From NCBI GenBank assembly GCA_020631855.1, contig JACKGU010000001.1:167601-231600 (forward strand): DNA of 64,000 bases, read 5' to 3'. This document shows, in pieces, positions 34,201 to 63,113 of the stretch. The DNA is from Candidatus Nomurabacteria bacterium. Lineage in GTDB: Bacteria; Patescibacteriota; WWE3; UBA101185; UBA10185. The position numbers and the translations under genes were made by a program. The notes under the pieces were generated by a model that saw only the letters and a list, made by a program, of their open reading frames with translations, did not search any database and was not told the origin of the DNA. The stretch's first letter is position 1, and the number at the start of each line of letters is the position of its first letter.

Positions 34201-34432
34201 CCATGCTTCTCGCCAATACTGGCCCGCCTTGTGTCTGTCTTCCTCCAAAGCTTATATCTAGTGAGCTGATAAGCCCAGCAGAGTAAGCTGCGGTGGCTGA
34301 GGACACTACTGCAACAACAGCAATGACGCTCACGACAGTAGCGCGGCTAAATTTTTTACTTCTTTTTCTGTGAGTCATAGATTTGAACACAGAGAATATT
34401 TTAGAAAAAATACTTTCTTTTCTTTTATTCAT
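31202..34432 (-). CDS. Giant LPXTG-anchored cell-surface protein (1076 aa) with repeated DUF11-like beta-sandwich modules.
   Basis: The C-terminus is LPETG (nt 31283–31297), then a hydrophobic stretch, then RVRRKLS. The N-terminal signal peptide is MNKRKESIFSKIFSV...VVSVIAVVAVV. Internal modules repeat (e.g. VYKPGEQIRYEIRIANVGKGDATDVAFNDAVP and VRNTGETELANVVISDKVP). Confidence 0.8.
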   Translation of the reverse strand: MNKRKESIFSKIFSVFKSMTHRKRSKKFSRATVVSVIAVVAVVSSATAAYSAGLISSLDISFGGRQTQGGPVLARSMEYGFTDVCGTHDVDGNNITFIPPFNDVTDVRATNWNPGWLDLSKTMCNDRGYPVNQEGQCYTFPGYEGGTAYELDVNAPYCQAGSINEKAHAYVCDAEVTGGNPWLACGKSANYVYKALSGRSLSLGQLDEKKKIETGTGLTCGSTVQMDIFNATCTTDMITQHYLVIDNGGDPSDPANWPLDPNGVPTFCLAKDAFVWYTGSCEIEVQKRFVADNNGQPNPSQVKETAYEGENVWVEFTLDNTKGQYVYNETRTLSDTLANNFRYEGQYQPENSDFTCTNSGQDVSCVFEGSIDKGETSKVYFKVNVLEGYLTNEDCEVPNTVFLNDDTMTCTDDANDPSCSITDICLLRVEEEDFDLDIVKKFYGDSNDKPSQNEITQVKVDDKAWIKFRVTNTGEGAYFGSWQDGGVVRANPMLINDDLNEVDNNVLEYTGKLTTDYDGFNYNQCNFITNNSELVCNITTVDLQPDAKFDIYAQVKVTDMPDNNSNGICPANSVKYTNHASLEFTNLAGETQDCSNPFNASDPQCTEDYLCMMEDIVVEEPELTIEKVNLDGNKVYKPGEQIRYEIRIANVGKGDATDVAFNDAVPSEIDYATVALSVSPESFRNDFVYNESTGVIRSDSDGFDLDAGGRITLKVVAKIKSDIEKSEDDEIYNQACITDQVAGDFEKVYCDDVTNTLVWDDDIVPVPGIDIKKDIDISKSTGDDTTYEKGDDIAFKISVRNTGETELANVVISDKVPAYTEYNAEKSKAYGFDWSCSNGIGAGKDCTLDIGTLKIGETKVVYFVSTVVDYDNTGSHNLDSENIVCIVAGMPKDEKVCDDADFDLKVIEDEEEEEKEIKIDVDKEVRIKGDDEWLDKVTNVKKDDVLEFRIRVKNEGKDELDNMKMEDFLPDELKKIGGSGLTEYWENFKEGKTKTFIIEVKVRDSEFDKENVDKCVKNKVEVYYDGDEVGSEDAKVCYVNKEITELPETGAETNLALTVLGLTSAVAGIRVRRKLS

Positions 34433-34890
34433 TTTTTTACGTGGAGGGCAAATCCTACGTCCAAAAACTATAGACCAAAAAGGGTTATTGAAATGGGGCC
34501 TATAGTTCATATAATTTTGAACTGTTGAGATTGTATCATAGAACCCTATAGCAGTCAACTCTAAGGTATAAAGCAATTTCAACATCCCGATGTGGTCTGT
34601 TTCTCGCATTTCTTATTCAGAAATTTATTGTTATATAGTTATTCCCAACTTATTTGTAGATGTCTTTTTGGGGCTCTGTTGCAGCGTTCTCACAGATTGT
34701 CTCTCTGCGTCTAGTTCCCGGAGCTTGGCGGGCGCTTGTGGTTTTATGGCACCCCTCACCCTCGGTCTTATGGCACATATTTGAAATATTTGCTTGTAAT
34801 AATGTAGTACAGAAGTTGAACTTTTAAGTTGGGCCGGGGCACTAAGTAAGTACTTTGAACTCTTCTCTTTATGAAGTAAAATACCTCTGT

Positions 34891-37095: not shown

Positions 37096-37129
37096 TTGCT
37101 CGATCTTTTCGCAAGATAGATGATTTATG

Positions 37130-37166
37130 GGGGCCCCGATCTATGATCGGGGCCCCTCAATTTTTC
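37130..37166 (+). terminator. Rho-independent terminator after rpsR.
   Basis: GGGGCCCCGATC-TAT-GATCGGGGCCCC is a perfect 12-bp stem. It is followed by TCAATTTTTC. Confidence 0.75.
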
Positions 37167-37210
37167 TTGATTTGCTTTCAACACACAGCGTCAAATGTTA
37201 TTATTTTTAC

Positions 37211-38236
37211 ATGCCCGTTTTGTCATTCTACGAAGGCTACTCTGAGCTGACATTTGTATATTCTGAATCCGATAAATCCAAGGTGGGGAACGAGTTGTTG
37301 GAGCTTGACGCTAAGCCGGAGATCTTTAAGTTGCCCTTCGTTTACAGCGCAAATCTTTATTCCTGCTCGTTTTCAAAAGAGCAGTTTTATAAGGAAGTTT
37401 TTTCTTTGGTTTATAGTCAGTTGGGAATTACAAAAGACCAACTACCCGGTCTAGAATTTTACGCTTCCGGTTATATTAAGGTGCCTGATTCTCTTCCTCT
37501 TAAACCGAAAAAGTCCTTTTGCGTATCCGACTTTATACACGAGCCATATTTATTTGTAGGTTCGGATTTTCTAATCCAACAAGGCTGCTTTACTTCTCTT
37601 TTGCCCGTGTCCTATTTGACTCAGTACGCAAACTTCTATTCTAATTACAGTATCTATCCGGGCATGAAACTAACAGAGCCTAGAGACATTGTTTTAACAG
37701 ACCAGCTTGTAAGAGATTCTATGTATTTCTCTTCCTTATCTTCTTCTCTAAACTTGAAACCGAAAAAACCTGTAACAAAAAAGGCTGTTTTCACAGGCGA
37801 GAGGCTTTCCAACTACGAGGAAAACAAGGCCCTTTCGTTGTTACTTATGCTTGATTTGTTGATATATCCTGGTATGTATCAACTACAGCTTGATAAATCA
37901 AACCTTTTGCCGGCACTTTTTGCGTTAGATATTACCAATTTCGGCCTACTTTCAATAGGTTCCGCAATAGTATCCCCGGGTTATAACGAGGTGTTATTTA
38001 AATCTGAAGCCGCAAGCCAGCAATTTTTTGAAATTTCGGAAGATTCAATTTTTATATTGCCTCTGGATGCCGAAGAGCAGGGGGTTGTGGCGGTTAAATC
38101 GGAGTTAGGAACTATGGAATATGAAGTTAAGGGCGGCGAGGTGGGTTTGGTGTTTGACGCTCGTAGGCGAGATATGGGGCCGGTTTATAAAGATGTGTAT
38201 ATTAACATGATTGAACAAAATTTATTGAGAATATAA
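37211..38236 (+). CDS. Hypothetical protein (342 aa).
   Basis: The ORF starts after the terminator. The longer ORF-track start at 37127 lies inside the terminator stem. No motif was recognised. Confidence 0.5.
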   Translation: MPVLSFYEGYSELTFVYSESDKSKVGNELLELDAKPEIFKLPFVYSANLYSCSFSKEQFYKEVFSLVYSQLGITKDQLPGLEFYASGYIKVPDSLPLKPKKSFCVSDFIHEPYLFVGSDFLIQQGCFTSLLPVSYLTQYANFYSNYSIYPGMKLTEPRDIVLTDQLVRDSMYFSSLSSSLNLKPKKPVTKKAVFTGERLSNYEENKALSLLLMLDLLIYPGMYQLQLDKSNLLPALFALDITNFGLLSIGSAIVSPGYNEVLFKSEAASQQFFEISEDSIFILPLDAEEQGVVAVKSELGTMEYEVKGGEVGLVFDARRRDMGPVYKDVYINMIEQNLLRI

Positions 38237-38237
38237 T

Positions 38238-39230
38238 ATGGCTTATTACATACCTGTATACAGAAAAATGAACCTTCACAGAGAAAGCTTAGTAAGAAGA
38301 GAACTTCCTATTGAAGGTGATTTGATAGTGAAGGTGGGGGATTCGGTTTTGCCTTTTACGAAGATCGGCCGTGCAACCATATCGAAAGATTTTCTGGTTC
38401 TTCCTCCTAAAATAAAAATTCAGAGGTCAATGTTGCCGAAACCATTAATTTACGAAGGCGAGGTGCTCGGTAGAGCCGGCTTTAGGAGTTTTAAAGCCCC
38501 GTTCAATGGCTATTTCGAAGAAGATTCTATTAACGGCCTTGTTTACAAGAGAGAGAAGCAGGATTATTGGATGTTGGCCGGTGTTTGGGGGGTAGTTAGT
38601 GAGGTCGTTGGTGGCCGAAGTGTCACTATTAAAGCCCAAGTTATTGATATAAATTTTTCTGCCGCTTGCGGCACAGACCATATGGCCGAATTGATAGTTT
38701 TTCCAAACCCGTCAAAGCTTTTGGATTTAGAATATTTACAAAATTTTTCAAAAGGAATTAAGGGCAAGATCGTATATGTTGGTGATTTTTTACGTAAAGA
38801 GCTGGTACTCAAGGCAATTGAACTAAAGGTAGGCGCGTTGATTGGGGGCAGTATAGAGAAAGATATTTTTAACTTGGCGAAAAGCAGGGGTTTAGGAGTT
38901 GGTATAACGACCGGATTTGGCCAGCTACAAACACCAAGCAAAGTTTTTGATTTTCTTAAGACAGTCTCCAATCGACACGTTTTCATAGATGTTTCGGATG
39001 GCAAATTAACTATTCCAATTCCGTCCGAATTCAATACCTCCTCTTTTGCAGAGAATGGAGAATCTATTTGCGAGGTTAAAAAAGAGGTTCCTGTGTTAGT
39101 TTTGCAGAGCCCATACTTTGGAAGAGAGGGAAAAGTAGACGATATACAGAATGATAAAATTTATGTTAAACTCAACGAGTCAGAAGAGGTACACGAGATT
39201 AATAATTCCAACCTTCTGGCCCTCTTATAA
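38238..39230 (+). CDS. Hypothetical protein (330 aa) with N-terminal barrel-sandwich-like segments.
   Basis: It is separated by 1 nt from the upstream ORF. EGDLIVKVGDSVLPFTKIGRA resembles a lipoyl/hybrid-barrel motif. No catalytic motif was found. Confidence 0.5.
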   Translation: MAYYIPVYRKMNLHRESLVRRELPIEGDLIVKVGDSVLPFTKIGRATISKDFLVLPPKIKIQRSMLPKPLIYEGEVLGRAGFRSFKAPFNGYFEEDSINGLVYKREKQDYWMLAGVWGVVSEVVGGRSVTIKAQVIDINFSAACGTDHMAELIVFPNPSKLLDLEYLQNFSKGIKGKIVYVGDFLRKELVLKAIELKVGALIGGSIEKDIFNLAKSRGLGVGITTGFGQLQTPSKVFDFLKTVSNRHVFIDVSDGKLTIPIPSEFNTSSFAENGESICEVKKEVPVLVLQSPYFGREGKVDDIQNDKIYVKLNESEEVHEINNSNLLALL

Positions 39231-43110: not shown

Positions 43111-44928
43111 TTATTTGTTCAACCTAATTACTATCTTTCCAAGATTTCTGTCTTCAACTATGTAGAAAATTCCTTGCCTGGGTCTTGCGGATCTGCCCAC
43201 TATATGGGTGCCGGAAAATTCTGCGGTTCTTTGGGTCTTGTCTGTTTTGTTTACTACAACCATCAACTCCCCCCGCCCCGGTCTATCAGGTTCTGGAGTA
43301 TCTTTTATTTTCTTAGCTGTCTGTTGAGAAAAAACTACCACAGTACCGTCGAGATCGTAAAAGAATTTCTCTAGGGTGACTTGCGCCTCTCCAGATTCTC
43401 CTGTTCTTACAAAGCTAGCTTTCATAAATACCTCACGGTGTACCCCACAGAAGCTTGTTTCTCCTACGTGGATTCCCAATCTATTATGTGAGAAGGGGGT
43501 TTGTCTTCCTGTAATTTTAGTAGTAGCCAGATAAGTAACATCTTCGATTTCGGTTAGGAGATATTTTTTAGTTCGTCTTCCGCATAACCCCTCTATTGAA
43601 AGCCTTTGATCTACAGCCTTGTACAGCAGTAGCTCTCTAGCCTTTAACATGCCGGCGAGTAGAAATTGTTGCTCGCTATTCCCCATTTGTTGCGGGCTGT
43701 GTTTTTGTTGTAGGTCTTGTATGGTTTTATCAAGTTCTTGCAAAAAAATTTGACGAGCGGAGACGTAACTTGGTATAAGTACTCTGGCAATTGTATCGAG
43801 TGGCTCGCTCCTTCTGGGGCCTTCCGGTAACTGAAAATTTTTATGATTCTGTTGTTGTAAAATAGCTGGTTCGGTGAATAGGCTTCCAAGCCCTGCGATC
43901 ACGTTCGCAAATCTCTCCAGCACCCGTGTTTGTTCATTAACTCCATCTTCGCAAAATCTCATTATTATGGGCAGTTTACTATGTACTAGTTCGTGTATAA
44001 ATTCTTTGAGTTCTTGGTGAAGTTTCTCTCTCGGTTTTTTCCAGAGATCCACTATCGCCCCATGGGCCATTCCTGCAAAGAAACCCATATTTGTTTGTAA
44101 ACCGGCATCGTCAATAATTTTTTTAGTCGCTATAGCATTTATTGCCATTACAAGATTTCTAAGCTCTATCCCGAATACCGTTTCTGTAAAAATAACTTCC
44201 GGTTCTAAACTTTCTTCTTTTTCTATTTTTATTTTTGCAATAGCTTCCACAGGGGCGACTCTTTTTATTGGCGTGTGTGGAAGTGCTGAAGTTCGTGCCA
44301 AACTAAAACCTAAGGCAGCAGTTGCCAACGAGAATCTGAATAAGAATTCTCTTCTACCTATTGTATTCGTAGCGCAGTAAATTGGGGTTGGTATATTTGT
44401 TGCAGATAAGTCGTCATTTTTTTTTATTTCAATTAAATCTGTTCCTGCTAAGATAGCTAGTAGCAATAATTCTGTGTTTCTCCAGGGACCCATATCGCCA
44501 CCTCCTTCAGCAGCGATTCTTGCACCTTGTTTACTAAGTCCCTCGTAATAAAGCTGGGCAGCCAGGCCATCTATTCTGGCATCAAAAGCACATATTGCGC
44601 CGCCATTACGATAAAGCTCGCGAAGAAGTTCCTCGTGCTTCGTACGTTCTCTATGTGTCGATCCGTATCCGATGTTTTCTCTTCTGATTTGTGCCAGAGC
44701 ACTCCAAGCTCTCACAGTGTCTCTGAGGCCCATTCTACGTATGGTTTCTAGTTGGTTGGTTCTAAGAATAGATCCAAGAGAATATAATTCCAATTCTCCG
44801 CAAAGAAGAGAATTTATGGGATTTTCTGGATCTATGTCTAATTCCCTTAGCAATGCTGCGGTTACAGCATGATTCCAGAATTTATAATTGCAGGGTGGTT
44901 CATTTCCTGATCTTTTTTCATTAGACAT
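43111..44928 (-). CDS. Hypothetical HExxH-motif protein (605 aa) with an internal twin-arginine-like motif; GC-rich.
   Basis: HELVH at aa 312–316 is followed by Glu at +12, +16 and +22, which is a gluzincin-like arrangement. [25 protein letters not shown] at aa 190–214 resembles a Tat signal or a transmembrane anchor. Local GC is about 45–50%. Confidence 0.5.
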
Positions 44929-48037: not shown

Positions 48038-48119
48038 CCGCTGTATTTTTGTGATGCCGGTAACGCACGGTGTCGACATTCTCCAAATAACTTGATATAA
48101 CATATACGCAAATGTTCGT

Positions 48120-48206
48120 GCCGTGGTGGCGGAATGGTATACGCGTTGGTCTCAAAAACCAATGGGATTTTTTCCCGTGTGGGTTCGACTCCCACCCACG
48201 GCACCA
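48120..48206 (+). tRNA. tRNA-Leu (anticodon CAA), type II with a long variable arm.
   Basis: GCCGTGGTGGCGGAATGGTATACGCGTTGGTCTCAAAAACCAATGGGATTTTTTCCCGTGTGGGTTCGACTCCCACCCACGGCACCA. The acceptor stem is GCCGTGG/CCACGGC. The anticodon stem is TTGGT/ACCAA with loop CTCAAAA. Confidence 0.85.
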
Positions 48207-48225
48207 GTCACAGAAAGGGGACAAT

Positions 48226-48777
48226 ATGATAGCAACAGAACTAAAAACAGGCACAATATTCAAGGAAAACGAAGTTCCTTATTTAGTCTTGAAGTACACG
48301 CATACTAAAGTTGCCAGATCAGGGGCAAATGTAAAGGTTAAAGCAAAGAGCCTTTTAAACGGCTCCGTTATAGAGAAAAGTTATAACGGCACAACAAAGC
48401 TGGAAGAAGCGGATATATTTAGAAAAAGCGCCCAGTATCTTTATAAAGAAGGCGGTTATATTTTTATGGATCCTGATACTTTTGAGCAATTTACAATTCC
48501 TGAAGATATATTAGGAGAGTCGGCGCAGTTTTTGCGAGAAGGGGAGAGTGTGCAAGTACTTTATTTTGAGGACGCCCCTATTTCTGTTGAGCTTCCGATA
48601 AGTATGCTTTTTGAAGTAACTTACACCGAGCCTGGTTTTAAGGGTAACACTGTTTCAAATGTCTATAAAGACGCTACAGTTGATAACGGGGCTGTTGTGA
48701 AAGTTCCTTCCTTTATTAATATTGGCGAAAAGGTTAAAATAGATACAAGAACAGGCGAGTACATTTCCAGAGCTTAG
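48226..48777 (+). CDS. efp: Elongation factor P.
   Basis: MIATELKTGTIF...VKPGKGGAF-like region (TKVARSGANVKVK) and three OB/KOW domains. The ORF-track N-terminus overlaps tRNA-Leu and was trimmed to M39. Confidence 0.9.
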   Translation: MIATELKTGTIFKENEVPYLVLKYTHTKVARSGANVKVKAKSLLNGSVIEKSYNGTTKLEEADIFRKSAQYLYKEGGYIFMDPDTFEQFTIPEDILGESAQFLREGESVQVLYFEDAPISVELPISMLFEVTYTEPGFKGNTVSNVYKDATVDNGAVVKVPSFINIGEKVKIDTRTGEYISRA

Positions 48778-48858: not shown

Positions 48859-49776
48859 ATGTTACCCGCTATTTTAACTATCAACACTTTTACTCTTTCT
48901 ACGTACTATATTTTTGGGTTTATAGGATTCTTGTTCTCACTTTTTATTGTTTGGTATGAGGCGAAGCGAGATGGTTTCGAGCTTGAAAAAGCTTTAGATA
49001 TTTTTTTTGTGTCTTTTGGGGCTGCAGCACTTTCCGGGTACTTTTTTAAGCTTGAGATCGCATACTTTGTTTTTTGGCTTATTGTTTATATTTGGGCTAA
49101 GCATATTAATTGGTCACACTTTAGGTTGTATGATATTTTTTCTACTGCTCTGTACATCGAATTTATTTGGGTATTTGCAGGGTTAATATTAACTAACAGT
49201 TTCCCGGACTATTCAGTGCAGATTTACCTGTTTTCCTTGGTTTTACTGGTTTTATTTATTTTCGGTTTTTTATTTAGGGTAAAACTTACTTCCGGTTTTA
49301 CTTTCTCGCTTTCAACCATTGTGGCCGGCTCAGGGCTGTTTCTTTTATTTCGCAGTGTGCTGGTATTGCCTTTTTACATATCCTTATTTACAATAAGCAT
49401 AGTAACTCTTTATTTAAGGCAAAAAAGCATGAGTAGTCTACCACAAACTTTTATAGACAGAATGAAATCTCTTTTAAAAAGGAAAAACGCCCAGCTTGAA
49501 GCTGAGCAAAAATCTCTATTGGATAAAGATCCGTATTTAGCTCCAGGAAGAACCGAGGAGAATGAAATATTGGATGATGTCAACGAAGATCTTGAAAAAG
49601 AGCTTTACGATAAAAAAGTGAATTTTATTCGTTCTCTTCAGTCCCAAGTTCAAAGAGCCTTGGCTCGAATGCGCGCAGGGAAGTACGGTGTGTGCGAGGT
49701 CTGTGGTAAGGAAATAGGCAAAGAGCGGTTGGAAGCTCTTCCAGAGGCTACAAGATGCGTTCAGCATGCTGAGTAA
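48859..49776 (+). CDS. Lgt-like polytopic membrane domain fused in frame to a DksA/TraR-family C4 zinc-finger domain. It may be two genes.
   Basis: Residues 1–190 form about six transmembrane helices. The N-terminus resembles Lgt TM1–TM2 (FIVWYEAKRDGF..ALDIFFVSFGAAALSGYFF), but the Lgt signature GNFxNxE was not found. Residues 191–305 (MSSLPQTF...GKYGVCEVCGKEIGKERLEALPEATRCVQHAE) are a YteA/DksA-like domain. An internal ATG at 49429 has AAGG upstream. Confidence 0.5.
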   Translation: MLPAILTINTFTLSTYYIFGFIGFLFSLFIVWYEAKRDGFELEKALDIFFVSFGAAALSGYFFKLEIAYFVFWLIVYIWAKHINWSHFRLYDIFSTALYIEFIWVFAGLILTNSFPDYSVQIYLFSLVLLVLFIFGFLFRVKLTSGFTFSLSTIVAGSGLFLLFRSVLVLPFYISLFTISIVTLYLRQKSMSSLPQTFIDRMKSLLKRKNAQLEAEQKSLLDKDPYLAPGRTEENEILDDVNEDLEKELYDKKVNFIRSLQSQVQRALARMRAGKYGVCEVCGKEIGKERLEALPEATRCVQHAE

Positions 49777-50116: not shown

Positions 50117-50506
50117 ATGGGTGATACATTTATAAACAAAACAATTCTCCTTGTAGAAGATGAAGATGATATAAGATCAGTATATGCTGAAGTGCTTAAA
50201 GACGACGGCTTTACTGTTATAGAAGCTTCAGACGGCTTGTCGGCATATGATTTGGCCGTGAATAAATTTTGGGATTTAATGCTTTTGGACATCATGATCC
50301 CAAAACTTGACGGTATAGGTTTAATGAAAAGATTGGCTAGGGAAGATAAGCTGGATTCACGCCCGGTAATTTTGCTTACAAATCTAGGTAATGACAGTGT
50401 TATAGCTGAAGCTTTTGACTTAGGTGCCTCCGGTTACTTAATGAAGGCGGAAATTACGCCGGACAAGATTCTGCAGGAGATAAAGGCTTATCTAAAAATA
50501 AGCTAA
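50117..50506 (+). CDS. Stand-alone response-regulator receiver (CheY-like) domain protein.
   Basis: ILLVEDEDDIR...DLMLLDIMIPKLDG carries the phospho-acceptor Asp. The conserved Lys region is LTNLG. Confidence 0.8.
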   Translation: MGDTFINKTILLVEDEDDIRSVYAEVLKDDGFTVIEASDGLSAYDLAVNKFWDLMLLDIMIPKLDGIGLMKRLAREDKLDSRPVILLTNLGNDSVIAEAFDLGASGYLMKAEITPDKILQEIKAYLKIS

Positions 50507-50566
50507 TTTGATTCAGATTTTTGTTATAATAACCTTTGGTATTAATATATGAGGAAAGGAAGTAAG

Positions 50567-50935
50567 ATGGCGAAAATAATTCTCATAGAGGATGAACAGG
50601 CTCTTTCAGAGGTATATTCCGAAGTATTAAGAGATGCGGGGTATGAGGTGTCGCAATGCTTTGACGGCGAGGAAGGCCTAAAGACTTTAAGAGCAGGTTC
50701 TTGGGATTTACTTTTGCTGGACTTAATGTTGCCTAAAATTGATGGAATAGAGATTTTGCAGCAGCTTGTGAATGAAGGCTTGCTTGAGGGTAGAAGTGTT
50801 ATAATGCTGACAAATTTAGGCAGCGATGAACTTGTAAATAAATGTTCGGTACTTGGCGCAAAAGAGTTTTTGATCAAATCTGATATTGACCCTAAGGTGT
50901 TGGTTGAGGCTGTAGGAAAGGCGCTCTCAAAATAA
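50567..50935 (+). CDS. Stand-alone response-regulator receiver domain protein (paralogue).
   Basis: MAKIILIEDEQ...DLLLLDLMLPKIDG...MLTNLG. A good RBS GAGGAAAGGAAG sits upstream. No output domain and no histidine kinase is present in the window. Confidence 0.8.
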   Translation: MAKIILIEDEQALSEVYSEVLRDAGYEVSQCFDGEEGLKTLRAGSWDLLLLDLMLPKIDGIEILQQLVNEGLLEGRSVIMLTNLGSDELVNKCSVLGAKEFLIKSDIDPKVLVEAVGKALSK

Positions 50936-51826: not shown

Positions 51827-52984
51827 ATGCCCACTACTGCCAAATCGCTAAGCAAAAACAAATCTTTTAAAGCAAAAACCTTAAGAGGTTCTAAAGGTAA
51901 AACAAAGGCATCTGCGTTAAAAAGAAACTCACGATCCTTAAAGATTAAATCTAAATCCACTTATAAAAATAAAAAAATTGCTAAAAAAAGAAGTTTTGCA
52001 TCGTATTTTCCTTTATTTGTGTTGTTTGTTGCGTCATTAGTAATTTTATCTGCAACTGTCATGTATAAAAATTATTTACAAGGATTTGCTTCAGCATCTT
52101 CTATTTCTGCATTTTCTCTGCAAGACACCGACATTTTTTCAGCGGCGGTTGTTTATGTAGACTCCATGCCACAGCTAGGTAAAGACTATACTCCAGATGT
52201 AATTTCGGCAGTAATATACATTTATGACACGAACAATATGTCAATAAATGTTTTTAACATCGATAATGATTTAGAGATCGACATGCCGGGCAGGCTTGGG
52301 GACGACACATTAGAAAAAATTTATGCGCTTTCTCTAATGATAACAAACGGCGACACGGCGGAATCGGATCATTATATTAAGCATTCTCTATCCAGATTAA
52401 TAGGTTTTCCTATAGACAGGCTAGTTGTTGCTTCGGATGAAGATCGTTCTGACGTAGAGAGCCTTCTATTAAGAGGGGCAGAAATTTCACCCTTGCTCAT
52501 AAAAGACATAAATTTGTATGTAAATGAGGTTAGCACCGATCTAACCAAACAGGAAATACTTTACATTGCAAGAGAAGCAAATAAGTCCCAAGGAAACATT
52601 TCGGAAATTGATTTAACATCTGATTTGTCTCAAAGTTCTGATAGTTTGATTCAGGAAATTACATTTGGATCGGAGATCTCGGTTGAGGGAAAGACCGTAG
52701 CAGTTTTAAACGGTACAACAACAGTAGGTGCGGCAAATGATGTTGCACGGGCAATAGAGAACATGGGAGGCAGAGTTATTACCGTTGGAAATGCAGATAG
52801 GCAGCACGACACAACCACTCTTTTGATTGATGACCCGGATAGTGCTGCAGCAAGAGGCATATACCGTTTCTTTGACATTTCTGATATAAGGCTTAAAGAT
52901 AATCCTGGAGATATTATAGACGCTGAAGTTAATAGAGCCGACATAGTTTTTATTGTCGGAGTTGACATGCTAGATCAGCTTTGA
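51827..52984 (+). CDS. LytR-CpsA-Psr (LCP) family protein with a LytR_C domain.
   Basis: The N-terminus is K-rich followed by one transmembrane helix. The LCP-like core is VIYIYDTNNMSINVFNIDNDLEIDMPGRLG..KIYAL. The C-terminus VAVLNGTTTVGAANDVARAIENMGGRVITVGNA is a LytR C-terminal domain. Confidence 0.65.
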   Translation: MPTTAKSLSKNKSFKAKTLRGSKGKTKASALKRNSRSLKIKSKSTYKNKKIAKKRSFASYFPLFVLFVASLVILSATVMYKNYLQGFASASSISAFSLQDTDIFSAAVVYVDSMPQLGKDYTPDVISAVIYIYDTNNMSINVFNIDNDLEIDMPGRLGDDTLEKIYALSLMITNGDTAESDHYIKHSLSRLIGFPIDRLVVASDEDRSDVESLLLRGAEISPLLIKDINLYVNEVSTDLTKQEILYIAREANKSQGNISEIDLTSDLSQSSDSLIQEITFGSEISVEGKTVAVLNGTTTVGAANDVARAIENMGGRVITVGNADRQHDTTTLLIDDPDSAAARGIYRFFDISDIRLKDNPGDIIDAEVNRADIVFIVGVDMLDQL

Positions 52985-53014
52985 GAGACTTAGACAAGAG
53001 TCTTTCGAGCCTCT

Positions 53015-55558
53015 TTGTTTTGTCGAAAAGTCCGATCCACATCACCTAAAAACATGTTTGAATTGTTATACGTATTAGTGCCCATACTTACTGTTGTAGG
53101 TATTGTATATGTCCTTTTTTTTAATCGTAGAGTCTCGAAAGGCTATATAGTTGCCGATTCGGTTTTTCCCGATTTTAAGCTACTTGAGATTCAGGTTCCC
53201 AAGAACGAAGATGCGTCGAAGGATTCCGCAATCTCTTCTTTATCGGCCGAACATTTATTTGCAGCTCTGCACGGAATACTAAAAGAAGAATCAAATATTC
53301 AAGAGCACGTATCTTTGGAGATAAAAGGTGATAAAGAAGGTATTAAGTTCTACGTTGGTGCCCCTGCAAGTATTTTAAAATACATCGAGAGCCAAATTTA
53401 TGCCCAATACCCCCAGGCTCATATTAGTGTTTACAACGGCCATAACTATTTAGGCGATCGCACAGGTATTTTTGAGGTCGGATCTATGAGCTTGGAAAAA
53501 GATTTCATTTTTCCAATAAGGGTTTTTAGGGATTTTGAGATAGATCCTCTTGCTAACATTGCTTCAACACTCTCTGAAATTAAAGAAGATGATCAAATAA
53601 TTATTCAAACGCTTTTTAAACCTGTGCCCGATGGTTGGCAAGAGAAGGGCTATAAATATTTGGCGGCTGTTACAGGAGGAAATTCTGTAGAATCTGACCC
53701 TTTTTTAAAAGACATTTCTCGCAGTTTATTTACGGAAATATTAAGTATATTAAAAAATATTCCTGTTATTATGATTCGTGGCTATGCAGATGAACCACAG
53801 GGCCAATTTAAGGTAAGAGAAGGAGGCGGGGTAAGGCTCTCGGCTTTTCAAGAGTTAGAGATTAAGGCTGTTGAGCACAAACTCACGCACATGGGCTTTG
53901 CGGTTCAAATGCGCGTGTACATAGCCTCGGCGACTTCCGGAAGAATAGATGACCTGAAACGTTCGGTTGGCTCTGCGTATAAACAGTTCAGCATGACAGG
54001 TCTTAACAGCATGAACCTGACATTGGAGTCGAACAGGCGCTCGGCATTAGACGACTTTAGAGTAAGGCAATTCGATGCTTATAAGTCTTTTATTCTAAAT
54101 TCCGAAGAGTTGGCGACTATTTTTCATCTCCCGTCAGCCTCTTCGGATCTTCCAAGTATTTCGTGGGTATATTCCAGAAAATCAGAACCGCCTTCAGTTT
54201 TGCCCACCGAAGATTGTACTTACATTGGCGATACTGTGTACCGCGGAAAAAAAGTTCGTTTTGGCCTTTCTAATGGAGACGACAGGCTTCGCCATATGTA
54301 TCTTATTGGTAAATCAGGTACCGGAAAATCTACTTTGATGGAGGCGATGGTTTTGCAGGATATTATAAGAGGGGAGGGGGTCTGTTTACTTGATCCTCAC
54401 GGCGAGACTATTGATAAGGTTTTGGATCGTATTCCCGATCATAGAATTGAAGATGTAGTCGTTGTTGACCCTTCTGATACGGAAATGCCCGTCGGGATAA
54501 ATTTATTAGAGTTGTCGCATCCCGATCAAAAAAATTTGATGGCTTCAGGGTTGGTTTCTGCAATTAGGCATCACTTTGATTATTCTTGGGGGCCCAGGCT
54601 GGAGTATTTATTAAATTACTCACTTTTAACATTGTTGGAGGTTCCCGGAACATCTATGCTTGGCGTGACAAGGTTATTGGAGGATGTAAACTATCAAAAA
54701 TATATTTTACACAATGTAAAAGATCCCGTTATTCAAGCATTTTGGGACAAGGAATACAAGGAAATGAGGGGCAATGCTAAGTTAGTTACTGAGGCTATAG
54801 CGCCAATTCAGAACAAAGTAAACCGCTTTCTATCTTCAAGCACAATTAGAAATATTCTTGTTCAGAGAAGATCCACTATTGATATTTGGGACATAATGAA
54901 TTCGGGCAAAATTTTGTTGATAAACTTATCAAAAGGAAAGATAGGAGAAGACAATGCCAATCTCTTAGGGGCTTTGTTGGTTTCTCGAATTCAGTTTTAC
55001 GCTTTACAAAGAGCAAATATAACTTACGACAAGCGGAAGCCCTTTTATCTTTATGTAGACGAGTTTCAAAATTTTGCCACCGGCAGCTTTGAGTCAATTC
55101 TATCTGAATCGAGAAAATATAAGTTAGGTTTATACCTGACTCATCAGTACACCGCACAGCTTCCCGAGGATCTCCAGAAGGCGGTTTTCGGTAATGTTGG
55201 TACAATTGCGGCTTTTTCACTTGGAGCCCCGGATGCTCGCATATTACAAAGTGAGTTCGCCCCGTATTTTGACTCCGAGGACATCATTTCTCTAGAGAGA
55301 TTTAATATATACATTAAACTTATGATTGATGGCATGACTTCTTTGCCGTTTTCAGCTAAAATATTATTGCCATGGGAAGAAGAAGGTCTCATACCAAAGA
55401 CAGGCAATAGAGAGAAAATTCTTGAGCTCAGTCGACGTAAGTACGGGGTGCCGAGAGATCGCGTAGAGTCAGCTGTCAATAAATGGATTGAAAGGCCTTT
55501 TGACAAAGGCATGGCAATAGCTGAACAAATTAAGAGAGGTGGTACAAATGGACAATAG
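53015..55558 (+). CDS. Membrane-anchored P-loop ATPase of the HerA/FtsK/VirB4 (DUF87-like) clade (847 aa).
   Basis: A transmembrane helix is at aa 17–36 (LLYVLVPILTVVGIVYVLFF). About 400 aa of N-terminal domain has unknown function. Walker A is LIGKSGTGKST and is followed by VCLLDPHGE, which resembles the HerA DPHGEY motif. Walker B is YLYVDEFQNF. The start could be M14. Confidence 0.6.
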   Translation: MFCRKVRSTSPKNMFELLYVLVPILTVVGIVYVLFFNRRVSKGYIVADSVFPDFKLLEIQVPKNEDASKDSAISSLSAEHLFAALHGILKEESNIQEHVSLEIKGDKEGIKFYVGAPASILKYIESQIYAQYPQAHISVYNGHNYLGDRTGIFEVGSMSLEKDFIFPIRVFRDFEIDPLANIASTLSEIKEDDQIIIQTLFKPVPDGWQEKGYKYLAAVTGGNSVESDPFLKDISRSLFTEILSILKNIPVIMIRGYADEPQGQFKVREGGGVRLSAFQELEIKAVEHKLTHMGFAVQMRVYIASATSGRIDDLKRSVGSAYKQFSMTGLNSMNLTLESNRRSALDDFRVRQFDAYKSFILNSEELATIFHLPSASSDLPSISWVYSRKSEPPSVLPTEDCTYIGDTVYRGKKVRFGLSNGDDRLRHMYLIGKSGTGKSTLMEAMVLQDIIRGEGVCLLDPHGETIDKVLDRIPDHRIEDVVVVDPSDTEMPVGINLLELSHPDQKNLMASGLVSAIRHHFDYSWGPRLEYLLNYSLLTLLEVPGTSMLGVTRLLEDVNYQKYILHNVKDPVIQAFWDKEYKEMRGNAKLVTEAIAPIQNKVNRFLSSSTIRNILVQRRSTIDIWDIMNSGKILLINLSKGKIGEDNANLLGALLVSRIQFYALQRANITYDKRKPFYLYVDEFQNFATGSFESILSESRKYKLGLYLTHQYTAQLPEDLQKAVFGNVGTIAAFSLGAPDARILQSEFAPYFDSEDIISLERFNIYIKLMIDGMTSLPFSAKILLPWEEEGLIPKTGNREKILELSRRKYGVPRDRVESAVNKWIERPFDKGMAIAEQIKRGGTNGQ

Positions 55559-56270
55559 AGATTTAAAAGAGAGGCTTTTAAATTTAAAATCAAACCTAGC
55601 AAAAGTTATTTCGGAGATAGATAAAATTTATGCGGCTTTGGATAGGGTTGAAGATTCACCTCCAGCAAAAAAGGACCCAAGTCTCTTAGTGGCCGCGCAG
55701 CTTCCGAGAGAGGTTGACCTCCCGGTGGCACCGGTTGCCGTTGAAGAAGCCGCGAACGCGATTGAAACATCTTATTTAAACCAAGTTGCAGAGACGGATG
55801 CCGGCATTCGAGGTAGTTTTGACGGCTTAAACTTGGTTACTCTAGAAGGGGAAACTTACGAGGTTCCTGCAAATTATGCAGCAAAAACAAAATTAGTTTG
55901 TGGAGACACTCTAATTATGCAGTCGCATGAAGGTCGTAACTTATTTAAGGTGATAGACAGGGTTCCGACCATAGAGATTTCAGGAATAGCAATGAAAAAA
56001 GATGATGGGTGGTTTATTTTAAACGCCGACAAGTCCTATAAAATCTCGGATGCTGCTGCTGACTTTAACAAGCTCAGTGAGCACTGTGAGGTTAAAGTTC
56101 TAATACCGGAAAATTCAAGTAATTGTAATTTTGCAACTTTTGTCGAGGCAGTGTGTGAGGACGAAAATAAAGGTTCTACATCCTCCGCTGATACTTCGGA
56201 AGGTAGTTCGGCCCCCAAAGACCTTTCTTTAGGAAATCTTCGCGTCATAGAAGATGATGATCTTCGTTAA
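55548..56270 (+). CDS. Hypothetical protein (240 aa) translationally coupled to the upstream ATPase.
   Basis: Its ATG overlaps the upstream TAG (ATGGACAATAG). The N-terminus is a coiled coil and the C-terminus is acidic and S-rich. No motif was found. Confidence 0.5.
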   Translation: MDNRDLKERLLNLKSNLAKVISEIDKIYAALDRVEDSPPAKKDPSLLVAAQLPREVDLPVAPVAVEEAANAIETSYLNQVAETDAGIRGSFDGLNLVTLEGETYEVPANYAAKTKLVCGDTLIMQSHEGRNLFKVIDRVPTIEISGIAMKKDDGWFILNADKSYKISDAAADFNKLSEHCEVKVLIPENSSNCNFATFVEAVCEDENKGSTSSADTSEGSSAPKDLSLGNLRVIEDDDLR

Positions 56271-56354: not shown

Positions 56355-57017
56355 TTATTCGTCGTCAAAACTATCAACTTCAATTTCGTGCTCTTCGATA
56401 GAGCCTTTTTTCATGTATGGCCTAACATCCTGTTTTTCTTGTTTGAAAATAGGCCTATCGGCTTTAAGCAGTATATCAACACAGTTTTTTGTCTCATTTG
56501 ATTGACCGATGTACTGTGCGCTCACCTTCGCGCCTTCCTTTGTGTGAAGATATATTTTTAGGGCCATGGGACCTCCGATTTGAGCTATTTCTTTTGAACT
56601 GTGTATTAGAAGTGTTTTAGTTTTTAAAATTCTCATACTAAACGTTTGTCCTTTTGCCAGCCTTTCCCATATCTTTGATTTACTTATAACTTCAGCTTTA
56701 ACTTCCTCAGATGTCCCGGGCTCTTTTATTACTGCGCCGGAGTTAATTGCAACTTTAGCTGATTTTGATTTTGCGAGTTCGTAGTTCTTTTTAGCTATTT
56801 GATTTATGGGGTCTTGTTCAAGAACCGCCTTAAACATCTTGCTGGCATTTCTGAAATCTTTAGATAGTAAATATGCCCTTCCAAGTCTAATTTTAGCTTG
56901 AAGGTTCGTGGGATCAAGGTCTAACAGCTCTTTGTTTGTGGCTATTGCTTCTGCCCAGTTTTCACATAGCGCTAACTTAATGGCCTTTTTTTCAAGTGCT
57001 GATAAGCTTTGTTGCAT
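56355..57017 (-). CDS. TPR-repeat protein.
   Basis: It has two or three TPR-like helical repeats (NWAEAIATNKELLDLDPTNLQAKIRLGRAYLLSKDFRNASKMFKAVLEQDP) and a C-terminal domain of unknown function. Confidence 0.5.
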   Translation of the reverse strand: MQQSLSALEKKAIKLALCENWAEAIATNKELLDLDPTNLQAKIRLGRAYLLSKDFRNASKMFKAVLEQDPINQIAKKNYELAKSKSAKVAINSGAVIKEPGTSEEVKAEVISKSKIWERLAKGQTFSMRILKTKTLLIHSSKEIAQIGGPMALKIYLHTKEGAKVSAQYIGQSNETKNCVDILLKADRPIFKQEKQDVRPYMKKGSIEEHEIEVDSFDDE

Positions 57018-61365: not shown

Positions 61366-63024
61366 CTATGCTTGAGTAGAGTGTTCGACAAGCAAATCAT
61401 CCAAGGCTGCTTTTTCTTGATTTTCGAGTTTGTCGGCATTTATCAAGATGCTGCGCTCGCGTCGGCTAGATTTTTCATTGGCGTTCATATAGTCAAATTT
61501 GCTTTCAGTCGTATCTACAAGTATAAATTTAGCTGAGTCTATTAAGAAGTTTGAGAAAGAATACTCAGCATTTATTTGGGTGCTTATTCCTAGTCCTGAT
61601 CTTGTTTCTTTAACGCTTTTATCTTCAAGTCTTTTGCGAGTAAGTATTTTTAAGCCATCGGTGTCGGAGATTTCTACCACCCTAGACTCTTTTTTTAATG
61701 TTGAATCATCTCTAGTCATGTCATGATCTTTTAGCGAATCTGTATTTTGATTTTGGTCTTGGGGTGCAGCTCCATAATTGCTGTTTCCATTAGGATAGGC
61801 CCCGTAGCCGTAGTTGTTATAGGGATCGTTGGCATTTAGTCCATAATTTCCTTGCGAATTTAAGCCATTATTAGTTCCATACGAAGGGTAGTTATTGTTG
61901 AAGTCGTCGTAGAGGTAAGGGTCGTCAAAACCATTATTAAAGCCCTGGTTTGAAGTTGCAAAAGGATCTCCGTTGTTTGCCGGTTGTTGTAACGGTTGTA
62001 TGCCCTGTTTCTGAGATACGTTTGTTGTTGTTTTTGTTCCAAAGGTTACTACTTGGTTAAGTTTGCAAGTTTCAACGGATACCATTTTTTTATTTTTGAT
62101 GATGTGTATATTTACTATGTCAAATACATTTTGCAGGTTTCCCATTGAAGATAGAAGTTCTTCCTTGTCGTAGTAATTATTTGGCGAGGCCACAACTTTT
62201 GCAACAAAAACGTTAAAGGCTTGTATAGCTACAGGGTGCATTGAGCTGAATATTAAGTTGGTGTCGGTCGGAAAGCTTACGATGTTTGCAGCCTGTTTGG
62301 CATGTAAATCTGGTTCGTAAAGCTCTTCTCTTACGAGAATGTCCCAATACTCATAAGCTACTTTATTTGTTTCACGGTGTGCAACTGTGGTTTGAATAAC
62401 AACAAAGTCCGGCTCACCTTCAATTGCCACCGGTCTGTATTCGCAGAACTTTGGATTAAGTTTGTAGCGCTCGTCTAGCTTCCTGTTTCTGGGAATATCG
62501 AACGGGTGTAATGAGCCTTCGTACATAGAAGTTCCTTTTCTATAGTTCTTCGGAGTTAGTTTGTGCAGTTTTTTATCTCCGTGAACATAAAATATACCTT
62601 GTTGAACTCTATGCTTACTCCCAACCCCCTCCACAAGATCCGTATAGAACATTTTGTTTGTTTTAGTACTTCCGGTAGTAGGATCTGTAGTGCGGCCCCG
62701 CTCCTGTATATGTGGCATTACATCTATTGAAACCTTGATTCTGGATGAAAAAGCGAACATGAGGATTCTCTTTAATATTTCAGCTGTATTCTTTCCTCTA
62801 GAGAAAAAGTCATACTCTGTTTCGAAGTCACATGGTACGCAGTTGTAATTTTCAGTTAATAACGGAGATAACTCTGCTTCAATTTCAGAAAGAGATTCGT
62901 CCCCGGTTGCTAAAGGATTCTCCAAGGTAAACTTGAAGTTCCCACGTCTGTTTTCAGAATATCCGAACTCTGATCCTGATTGTCCGTAACCTTTATTTCC
63001 AAAGCTATTAAAAGAATTAAACAT
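61366..63024 (-). CDS. Hypothetical protein with a central N/Y/G-rich low-complexity region.
   Basis: The start was chosen at MFNSF... because of a GAGGT RBS. Residues ~355–440 are QPANNGDPF...NNYGYGAYPNGNSNYGAAPQDQNQN. The flanking domains have no recognisable motif. Confidence 0.5.
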   Translation of the reverse strand: MFNSFNSFGNKGYGQSGSEFGYSENRRGNFKFTLENPLATGDESLSEIEAELSPLLTENYNCVPCDFETEYDFFSRGKNTAEILKRILMFAFSSRIKVSIDVMPHIQERGRTTDPTTGSTKTNKMFYTDLVEGVGSKHRVQQGIFYVHGDKKLHKLTPKNYRKGTSMYEGSLHPFDIPRNRKLDERYKLNPKFCEYRPVAIEGEPDFVVIQTTVAHRETNKVAYEYWDILVREELYEPDLHAKQAANIVSFPTDTNLIFSSMHPVAIQAFNVFVAKVVASPNNYYDKEELLSSMGNLQNVFDIVNIHIIKNKKMVSVETCKLNQVVTFGTKTTTNVSQKQGIQPLQQPANNGDPFATSNQGFNNGFDDPYLYDDFNNNYPSYGTNNGLNSQGNYGLNANDPYNNYGYGAYPNGNSNYGAAPQDQNQNTDSLKDHDMTRDDSTLKKESRVVEISDTDGLKILTRKRLEDKSVKETRSGLGISTQINAEYSFSNFLIDSAKFILVDTTESKFDYMNANEKSSRRERSILINADKLENQEKAALDDLLVEHSTQA

Positions 63025-63113
63025 ATATTGACCTCGTTTTTTAAGATAAGCGGATTTTACCACAAATTACTATAAGGTGCAATTTATCTATCAACTTGAC
63101 TTTGAAGGCCGCT

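Follow-up and report, generated by a model that had tools for sequence, protein, structure and literature searches.

What does a membrane-anchored ATPase do when its gene overlaps that of a small companion protein, and does such a pair belong to a mobile system or to the chromosomal core? The question is raised by a stretch of 64,000 nucleotides from Candidatus Nomurabacteria bacterium (GTDB lineage WWE3; assembly GCA_020631855.1, contig JACKGU010000001.1, positions 167,601 to 231,600 of the forward strand), which we refer to as the window, and in which the gene for a P-loop ATPase of the DUF8128 family is followed by the gene for a 240-aa protein that we call the partner. A preliminary description of the window had singled out this pair as its most system-like locus, possibly a transfer or anti-phage system. 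We find instead that the ATPase is a catalogued, nearly universal core gene of the Patescibacteria and that the locus, a pair of conserved core genes, lies among housekeeping genes and is not a strain-variable transfer or defence island. We lean, with little more than even confidence, towards the view that it is the WWE3 version of a core Patescibacteria membrane motor that handles nucleic acid, equipped with an adaptor resembling the single-stranded DNA-binding protein (SSB).

The breadth of the ATPase family carries much of this conclusion. At least 766 homologues came out of a word-indexed search; of these, the best-ranked 120 are full-length with 56–62% identity, and all 120 carry PF26449 and PF01935, and most also carry PF10412. 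With one genome taken per species, at least 598 species have a match (34–58% identity over the full length), and the taxa represented are WWE3, Saccharibacteria, Dojkabacteria, Gracilibacteria, Peregrinibacteria, Uhrbacteria, Buchananbacteria, Doudnabacteria and Nomurabacteria. The pair had been put forward as a candidate uncharacterised system; the ATPase is membrane-tethered and uncharacterised in function, but with matches in so many species it is largely a universally conserved housekeeping gene of its lineage. In a survey of 3,035 Patescibacteria genomes, Quinonero-Coronel et al. 2025 counted 5,713 homologues of VirD4-like type IV coupling proteins (T4CPs) in 2,918 genomes, with only 148 of the 5,713 near virB4; VirB4 itself was present in 2,417 of the 3,035 genomes, about 500 fewer than contain T4CP homologues. 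The authors of that survey state that exaptation 'cannot be ruled out'.

The surroundings of the locus are conserved as well. In another WWE3 genome the order of genes is that of the window, running MBL-DnaB-EF-P-DksA-like-LspA-like-response regulator-RluD up to the locus, and onward as LytR_C protein-ATPase-partner-TPR (opposite strand)-YebC-RuvC-...-XerC-...-RNase HII. Because gene order is identical in other WWE3 genomes, the locus is not strain-variable, as had initially been thought conceivable. We scanned 24 window proteins, comprising most of the larger open reading frames (ORFs), against Pfam, and ran a hidden Markov model (HMM) of the family over the whole 64 kb. The Pfam scans identified the housekeeping genes TopA, DnaX, CysS, HisS, SHMT, photolyase and S2, together with RseP-like, Ctp, HtrA, YchF and Fmt genes, and among the 24 proteins there were no type IV secretion system (T4SS), relaxase, pilus, VirB6, VirB4 or integrase-cargo genes. 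No second copy of the ATPase or of the partner is present in the 64-kb window, and VirB3-, VirB6- or VirB8-type genes were found neither in the window nor in 80 related loci. A conjugative element or T4SS cluster was thus considered and set aside, as the scans of most of the larger ORFs show housekeeping genes only. Across lineages, the neighbours of the ATPase that are involved in DNA metabolism are DnaB, YebC, RuvC(AB) and XerC; DprA and TopA; DnaX; or EndoV and Mfd.

The ORFs of the locus are found where the preliminary description had placed them, and the Walker A, DPHGE and Walker B motifs that it named in the ATPase are all present (Table 1). The 847-aa length given there for the ATPase needs revision: deposited 834-aa 'ATP-binding protein' entries (WWE3 / 'Candidatus Nomurabacteria') are 100% identical to the window ATPase, and because this identical protein has 834 aa, the true start is most likely the ATG at 53054 rather than the TTG at 53015. 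The single N-terminal transmembrane helix described earlier is borne out by a hydrophobic segment at aa 4–23 and by a helix at aa 2–26 of the AlphaFold2 (AF2) model. From the positive-inside rule, applied to the NRRVSK that follows this helix, the remainder of the ATPase would be cytoplasmic. In the wider family, 68/87 N-termini have a clearly hydrophobic stretch of 19 residues, and several more were borderline. The reported overlap between the ATPase stop codon and the partner start was also seen and amounts to 11 nt, with a Shine-Dalgarno-like GAGGTGG immediately 5' of the partner ATG, within the ATPase gene. The G+C content of the window is 36–44% and composition is flat across the locus; scans for promoter and terminator consensus sequences around the locus gave site counts no higher than in shuffled sequence. 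The 69 nt that separate the LytR_C gene from the ATPase ATG contain a 12-bp stem-loop with a T-rich run after it, at 52980–53009 (+).

To what family does the motor domain belong? Membership of the HerA/FtsK/VirB4/TraG clade, as originally assigned, holds, with DUF87 (PF01935) as the best Pfam match (E 1.5e-8; 35.4 bits against a cut-off of 23.2), but by sequence the nearest relatives within that clade are the coupling proteins, TrwB in particular. For the Pfam family TrwB_AAD_bind the score is 26.4 bits (cut-off 20.5), in an alignment that spans aa 426–718, and the coupling-protein families T4SS-DNA_transf and TraG-D_C also match. TrwB is the only PDB relative of the ATPase by sequence, aligned by hhalign with a probability of 88.5 (E 2.7e-6), as against a probability of 4 for TrwK/VirB4. 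When six references were scored with an HMM made from 77 diverse members of the family, TrwB received 28.8 bits, PcfC 5.0, VirB11 2.2, FtsK 1.2, TrwK -2.5 and PrgJ -5.0. The VirB4-type family AAA_10 stayed under its cut-off (16.1 bits against 27.5), as did the NCBIfam model helicase_HerA (13.5 bits against 970), and the Pfam scan of the ATPase gave no match to the CagE_TrbE_VirB profile or to the FtsK_SpoIIIE motor and gamma domains. Walker A is present in every family member examined and [YF][LF]YVDEF in 84/87; in the window ATPase, ~240 aa are inserted between Walker A and Walker B. With the T4CP TrwB of R388 (PDB 1e9r/1gl6) the ATPase shares the plan of a membrane-anchored P-loop ATPase, the RH..G..GxGKS...DPxG and hhhhDE Walker B signatures, and a long insertion between the Walker motifs, which may here be helical. 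Unlike a T4CP, in which two transmembrane helices directly precede the nucleotide-binding domain, it has one such helix and a 360-aa VirB4-like N-terminal domain; moreover, it is a chromosomal core protein, is not encoded beside a relaxase or T4SS, and belongs to a family paired or fused with OB (oligonucleotide/oligosaccharide-binding) proteins, S1 domains or basic tails. With HerA/DUF87 and FtsK/SpoIIIE proteins it shares the P-loop clade, DUF87 being above cut-off, whereas it has neither the HAS-barrel of HerA, whose NurA-type partner also differs from the OB protein found here, nor the alpha, beta and gamma domains of FtsK. An analogue of FtsK was rejected, FtsK being at noise level against the family HMM and Southlakia epibionticum having a separate, canonical and essential FtsK (Wang et al.).

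The ~400-aa N-terminal domain, previously regarded as without recognisable relatives, turned out to be already classified: it carries the precomputed Pfam annotation PF26449 (DUF8128). (A literature search found no mention of DUF8128, or of DUF87 together with Patescibacteria.) The AF2 model of the N-terminal 386 residues (pLDDT 85.6, pTM 0.80) consists of the membrane helix and alpha+beta sandwiches. In a Foldseek search of the PDB with this domain, the best 14 matches were all TrwK/VirB4 chains of the R388 T4SS (E 2.3e-7 to 1.7e-3, probability ~1.0, 7–10% identity), and the matches below them were weak and had ferredoxin-like folds. From the alpha+beta, non-P-loop topology of the query we infer that the matched portion is the N-terminal domain of TrwK/VirB4. 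The AF2 model and Foldseek thus describe an alpha+beta, VirB4-like fold without a HAS-barrel. Because the N-terminal domain matches TrwK/VirB4 and the nucleotide-binding domain is nearest to TrwB, the ATPase is a hybrid, with a VirB4-type N-terminal domain, a VirD4/TrwB-type motor and one anchoring helix; the structural identity of the N-terminal domain is new here. An alpha+beta domain followed by a P-loop domain is also the plan of VirB4/TraC/TrwK (PDB 7o42/7o43/8rtd). The N-terminal membrane helix recalls VirB3-VirB4 fusions. In contrast to TrwK and PrgJ, with which sequence similarity is limited to the P-loop, the window ATPase does not lie in a VirB3/VirB6/VirB8 cluster, and the VirB4 of Patescibacteria is a different protein, SEML1_0008 in Southlakia. 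In Uhrbacteria, Buchananbacteria, Doudnabacteria and related Parcubacteria-type loci, DUF8128 occurs as a separate ORF (424–488 aa) directly before an ATPase ORF (500–668 aa). Such split loci are L047, L061, L070, L071, L074, L076, L080 and L082, and in six of the eight the pair stands directly after secD/secF or at most two genes away.

For the partner, the sequence itself offers few clues. It has no Pfam match at E<=10 and no NCBIfam match at E<=0.1, and hence none to the SSB family PF00436, and its profile returned only low-complexity noise from the PDB; its UniRef name, '50S ribosomal protein L7/L12', is erroneous. Its family is nevertheless large, comprising 1,088 clusters at 50% identity in a profile search (976 with E<=1e-10) and 102 relatives in the word-indexed database. 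The N-terminal long helix and acidic C-terminus noted earlier are both present. In the AF2 model (overall pLDDT 81.8) the long helix is accompanied by a beta-domain at aa 86–202 with pLDDT above 93, and pLDDT falls below 60 beyond aa 205, in what would be a disordered tail. All Foldseek matches were OB proteins that bind ssRNA or ssDNA: the cold-shock-domain pair of RNase R/RNase II, the RNA-binding N-domain of Rho, Unr, IF1 and Stn1/Ten1. This uniformity indicates, at the level of a model, that the core consists of two OB folds in tandem, of cold-shock/S1 type. The conserved residues N109, Y110, K113, K123, K134 and R141 include aromatic and basic ones, and the partner is predicted to bind single-stranded nucleic acid.

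The acidic tip at the end of the tail is conserved in 9/9 of the first homologues retrieved; among 57 C-termini, 19 end in DDDLR and the others in EDELR, EEELS, EEVDF, EIDF and similar sequences. The tip of E. coli SSB is DDDIPF. The partner thus has the plan of an SSB, namely an OB fold, a disordered linker and an acidic tip with a hydrophobic residue (as in DDDLR, EEVDF and EIDF), whereas it differs in having no sequence similarity to SSB, two OB folds of cold-shock/S1 appearance and an N-terminal coiled coil, so that the likeness would be one of analogy, not homology. The OB-type, SSB-like nature of the partner is new here. Its substrate could possibly be RNA, by analogy, since RNA is the usual ligand of cold-shock and S1 folds and since a short subfamily of the partner is encoded between rplJL and dnaX.

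How firmly is the partner tied to the ATPase? The best 80 loci of a metagenome scan for the partner family include 14 close loci with a long-tailed partner, and in all 11 of these that have enough DNA the ATPase gene is directly upstream. A DUF8128 ATPase also precedes the partner in four of six more distant look-ups (Uhrbacteria, Woykebacteria and two others), and the partner follows the ATPase in L085, L086, L088, L089, L145 and L168. Locus L004 encodes a fusion of the partner core to the C-terminus of the ATPase (E 2e-34), and in L011–L013, L077 and L145 a tail-less partner homologue stands between two ATPase paralogues. In three ATPases (P0082, P0113 and P0114) the C-terminus bears a canonical S1 domain, in the position of the partner; the locus of P0114, L084, has the same synteny, with no partner gene and no TPR gene. 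Homology between the OB core of the partner and this S1 domain was tried and rejected; the hhalign probability of 0.1 makes the S1 domain a non-homologous replacement. Because S1 takes the place of an absent partner, an OB-type module at the ATPase C-terminus appears, from these sequences, to be a conserved requirement.

The proposal that the partner is genuinely coupled to the ATPase is supported by the overlap, by the 11 loci and by the fusion in L004, but it does not extend to most relatives of the partner, which are unlinked and lie near dnaX. In the same scan, 64 of the best 80 metagenomic relatives are short (~170 aa), lack the tail and have no ATPase within 5 kb. These proteins end in WAA[LV]EA, and in 42 of the 64 loci dnaX is directly downstream, usually followed by dnaB; the 42 loci lie within L106–L171, and a short partner is also found upstream of dnaX in L085, L087 and L090, the last two with the order rplJ(-rplL)-OB-dnaX-dnaB. 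The long tail and acidic tip are confined to the ATPase-linked subfamily, and for most homologues of the ATPase no partner gene lies within 7 kb. The short subfamily appears to be an unannotated candidate phyla radiation (CPR) OB protein that is tied to replication and translation genes and is probably essential. Both this split of the partner family, into tailed ATPase-linked and short dnaX-linked proteins, and the pattern of fusion and replacement are new here.

Published work on Southlakia epibionticum bears on both proteins. Wang et al. describe SEML1_0293 as a 921-aa protein with PF10412, PF12696 and PF01935 at ~aa 402–719, flag it as core and Patescibacteria-enriched, and report it to be non-essential, with normalised reads going from 5,817 to 2,940 to 1,372. 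Its context is DprA-...-TopA-...-sigma/HARE-HTH-ATPase, and because the closest Saccharibacteria relatives of the window ATPase share this context, opposite the division and cell wall (dcw) cluster, the window ATPase can be taken to be of the SEML1_0293 type; domain content and gene context together argue for orthology. The T4CP homologues of Quinonero-Coronel et al. and SEML1_0293 likewise have PF10412, PF12696 and PF01935 at ~aa 400–720 of ~900 aa, a domain content that places the window ATPase in their family. Most Saccharibacteria copies differ from the window ATPase in having a basic, low-complexity tail of 80–250 aa and no adjoining partner gene. A second ATPase paralogue, SEML1_0142 (1,019 aa), is essential, as is the preceding 139-aa SEML1_0141 (Wang et al.). 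As for the partner, SEML1_0404 is a 171-aa protein to which two ECOD 'Nucleic acid-binding proteins' domains were assigned, one of them from RNase II 2id0; it sits in the dnaX-upstream position and scored as essential by transposon sequencing (NE/ES/ES; Wang et al.). Its database matches carry the same erroneous '50S ribosomal protein L7/L12' name as the window partner, and its position, length, OB domains and name make it a probable member of the partner family. Wang et al. also describe the T4SS of this organism (SEML1_0006–0019, with SEML1_0008 as VirB4) as essential and without a recognisable coupling protein and relaxase, whereas a FEMS review lists a VirD4-like component for it. ComEC, ComF and DprA are non-essential and ComEC is required for transformation (Wang et al.); the only ComF homologue in their tables is a ComFC-like phosphoribosyltransferase, and there is no ComFA there.

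We propose, as the reading to which we give slightly better than even weight, that the locus encodes a nucleic-acid-handling membrane motor and its adaptor. The ATPase would, like its relatives, form a ring on the cytoplasmic side of the membrane. The partner, translationally coupled to it, would serve as adaptor through its oligomerising helix, two OB folds, flexible linker and acidic tip: its OB module would hold single-stranded nucleic acid and hand it to, or take it from, the motor, which would move the strand at the membrane at the cost of ATP, and the tip would dock the adaptor on the ATPase or on the neighbouring TPR protein. In other lineages the role of the OB module could fall to the fused S1 domain or fused partner of some relatives and to the basic 80–250-aa tails of most Saccharibacteria proteins. 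The pathway served could be the entry of single-stranded DNA in natural transformation, the delivery of substrates to a T4SS encoded elsewhere, or chromosome processing. A more specific version, which we regard as speculative and improbable, would make the DUF8128 ATPases a third, Patescibacteria-specific branch of the VirB4/VirD4 proteins that, recruited together with an SSB-like OB adaptor, acts as the cytoplasmic ComEC motor, pulling in single-stranded nucleic acid as the counterpart of ComFA; it is compatible with the non-essentiality of both the com genes and SEML1_0293, with the presence of ComFC and not ComFA, and with the DprA-TopA-ATPase order.

Several observations weigh against the motor-and-adaptor proposal. 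The ATPase adjoins secDF in Parcubacteria-type loci and faces the dcw cluster in Saccharibacteria, which are not DNA-metabolism contexts; Foldseek support for the partner is weak in its E-values (1e-3 to 0.3); the partner OB domain is not basic, with a median net charge of 0; and OB folds of the S1 and cold-shock type bind RNA more often than DNA. To these must be added the predominance of short, unlinked relatives of the partner, and the finding that SEML1_0404, the probable Southlakia member of the partner family, is essential and lies away from the ATPase gene while SEML1_0293 is non-essential, from which it follows that the OB protein has a function of its own. The adjacency of partner and ATPase in WWE3 could accordingly be, in part, lineage synteny.

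Taken further, these last points would make the adjacency incidental, the partner being a replication or translation OB protein with its own job and the ATPase acting on proteins or envelope precursors. The unlinked majority of the partner family, the 42 loci upstream of dnaX, the ribosomal-protein context in L087 and L090, the contrasting essentiality of the two Southlakia genes and the many ATPase homologues without a partner are all as this explanation would have it. We nevertheless think it unlikely: it does not sit well with an 11-nt overlap and a ribosome-binding site inside the ATPase gene, with the true fusion in L004, with a non-homologous S1 domain taking the partner's place at the ATPase C-terminus in the same synteny, with partners lodged between ATPase paralogues (L011–L013, L077 and L145), or with the restriction of the long tail and acidic tip to the ATPase-linked subfamily. 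Somewhat less improbable, although still rather unlikely in our judgement, is that the ATPase is the T4CP of a Patescibacteria T4SS encoded elsewhere and the partner its substrate adaptor or chaperone. TrwB is the closest solved relative and the Pfam coupling-protein families match; T4CP genes are often located away from virB4, most CPR genomes have a VirB4 system, and the VirD4-like component listed in the FEMS review would fit. However, the Southlakia T4SS genes are essential and SEML1_0293 is not, Wang et al. report that T4SS to be without a recognisable coupling protein or relaxase, and T4CP homologues occur in ~500 more genomes than VirB4 (2,918 versus 2,417 of 3,035). The single transmembrane helix and the 360-aa VirB4-like N-terminal domain depart from a canonical T4CP, and the essential paralogue SEML1_0142 is the better candidate for a T4SS partner.

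Could the locus instead be an envelope-biogenesis or cell-division module that includes the flanking LytR_C and TPR proteins? The block of LytR_C protein, ATPase, partner and TPR protein is kept in WWE3 and Microgenomates-like loci, and the positions of the ATPase opposite the dcw cluster and after secDF would suit such a role. Yet the block is always preceded by RluD and always runs on into YebC-RuvC, and so looks like plain lineage synteny; most other lineages lack the LytR_C and TPR genes near the ATPase, no catalytic domain of the LytR-CpsA-Psr (LCP) kind was detected, and the OB and S1 modules point to nucleic acid, not glycopolymers. We consider this very unlikely. Least credible of all, to the point of being negligible, is that the locus is an anti-phage system in which a HerA-type ATPase works with a variable effector, as the preliminary description had entertained, or what is left of an integrated conjugative element. 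The Pfam match that scores best is DUF87/HerA, and PADLOC gave weak matches to mad8 (E 1.9e-10) and HerA (E 1.5e-6), but these cover the generic P-loop region only, and PADLOC returned no match for the partner, the LytR_C protein or the TPR protein. The anti-phage idea is without support because generic P-loop similarity is all that PADLOC gives and the partner gives nothing, and a defence system was rejected on this basis. In addition, the ATPase gene is core, present at a single locus and syntenic among housekeeping genes across many classes, base composition is flat around it, and the locus is without nuclease, effector, relaxase or integrase cargo, the nearby XerC-like gene being itself syntenic.

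A large part of bacterial diversity belongs to the Patescibacteria, which are host-dependent and lack nucleotide synthesis, and in which the transport of DNA, RNA or effectors across the envelope matters. Few of their large, core, lineage-enriched proteins are without a function, and the ATPase family is among these; its hybrid architecture, its recurrent OB modules and the unannotated OB family yield hypotheses that are testable in the genetically tractable Southlakia. Were the improbable ComEC-motor version to be true, it would fill the place of the missing ComFA counterpart in naturally transformable bacteria that are unable to make nucleotides.

Table 1. Features of the ATPase-partner locus, in window coordinates. 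ORF coordinates are from a mechanical ORF list of the 64-kb window; domain calls are from Pfam/NCBIfam scans, AF2 and Foldseek.
Feature	Position	Strand	Details or basis
Upstream membrane protein, LytR_C C-terminus	51827-52984	+	385-aa ORF
LytR_C domain of upstream protein	52694-52912	+	Pfam PF13399
DUF8128/T4CP-like ATPase gene	53054-55558	+	834 aa from ATG 53054 (most likely start); ORF reaches TTG 53015 (847 aa)
N-terminal transmembrane helix (aa 4-23), then NRRVSK	53063-53122	+	Hydrophobicity; AF2 helix at 2-26
ATPase N-terminal domain (aa 1-386), Pfam DUF8128	53054-54211	+	PF26449 annotation, AF2, Foldseek
P-loop nucleotide-binding domain, TrwB/VirD4 type	54212-55555	+	Pfam, hhalign, family HMM
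Walker A GKSGTGKST	54308-54334	+	Motif position in ATPase
DPHGE motif	54392-54406	+	Motif position in ATPase
Walker B YLYVDEFQNF	55046-55075	+	Motif position in ATPase
Gene overlap, 11 nt, ATGGACAATAG	55548-55558	+	Partner ATG 55548 to ATPase TAG 55556-55558
Partner gene, 240 aa	55548-56270 (ORF from 55539)	+	Helix, linkers, predicted tandem OB fold, tail, tip
Partner N-terminal long helix, helical linkers after	55554-55652	+	AF2 model
Partner predicted tandem OB-fold core (aa 86-202)	55803-56153	+	AF2 pLDDT >93, Foldseek
Partner low-complexity acidic tail	56154-56267	+	Sequence, low pLDDT
Partner C-terminal tip DDDLR	56253-56267	+	Conservation among homologues
Convergent TPR protein, 220 aa from ATG 57017	56355-57017 (ORF to 57077)	-	Pfam TPR_19, E 3.7e-7

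The two genes that flank the pair deserve separate comment. The upstream protein had been labelled an LCP protein; it has a basic N-terminus, one hydrophobic segment and a LytR_C domain (aa 290–362, E 6e-8), but no LytR_cpsA_psr catalytic domain (PF03816) at Pfam E<=10 and no PDB relative by sequence search, and the label is not supported, although a divergent LCP-like core may be present. Synteny of this gene with the ATPase extends over WWE3, Microgenomates-like and Dojkabacteria loci, an association at the level of lineages only. The TPR protein on the opposite strand was recovered as described, by its match to TPR_19. A TPR gene follows the partner in 12/12 metagenomic loci that have an acidic-Leu-tipped partner and enough DNA, as well as in the window, L001, L003, L086 and L088, and it is absent where the partner is tip-less and in the S1-fusion locus L084. 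The tips of TPR-associated partners include DDDLR, EDDLR, EEELS and DEDELT, in loci that include L093–L105 and L121. TPR carboxylate clamps of Hsp70/Hsp90 co-chaperones bind C-terminal EEVD peptides. Because the TPR gene co-occurs with the acidic-Leu tip, the tip is a candidate TPR-docking peptide, and the TPR protein may, by this analogy, be a third component, an association that is confounded by lineage synteny.

Some variants of the ATPase were noted in passing. Runs like KKRRRRRKK are frequent in the tails of Saccharibacteria-type ATPases (L014–L081), as is a short strand-like motif at or near the tail end (ELRLR, EIRFH, LSIKH or VVLQIR). Endings of the form hydrophobic-R/K/H(-H) were counted in 21/82 ATPase tails and in 44/765 background ORFs, the sequences not being phylogenetically independent. 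Tandem ATPase paralogues occur in L009, L011–L013, L023, L077 and L145, and in L011–L013 and L077 a sigma-region-4-like gene also lies between the paralogues; by comparison with SEML1_0294, this gene would be of the HARE-HTH type.

Other parts of the window yielded observations of their own. A tRNA-Leu(CAA) gene lies at 48120–48206 (+), between dnaB and efp, and because of its position the ORF at 48112–48777 overextends elongation factor P (EF-P) at the 5' end; by eye, the real EF-P start is probably near MIATELKTG. The gene at 48859–49776 (+) encodes a 305-aa protein whose N-terminal ~190 aa include several hydrophobic segments and which ends in a C4 zinc finger of the DksA/TraR type; the syntenic gene in L001 matches zf-dskA_traR, and a membrane-anchored DksA-like protein is unusual. 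Tandem single-domain response regulators of 129 and 128 aa are encoded at 50117–50506 and 50549–50935 (+), of which one or two copies are kept at this position in WWE3 loci; no obvious histidine kinase was noticed beside them, and no scan for one was made. Five ORFs have no Pfam family, at 25436–27433 (-), 43111–44928 (-), 37127–38236 (+), 38238–39230 (+) and 5929–7056 (+), and a 565-aa protein encoded at 61366–63063 (-), also without a Pfam match, contains a long N/G/Y/Q-rich low-complexity region. Finally, the product of the gene at 31202–34609 (-) is a surface protein of 1,135 aa that has DUF11 repeats as well as an LPXTG cell-wall anchor motif, a sortase-type substrate in a Patescibacterium.

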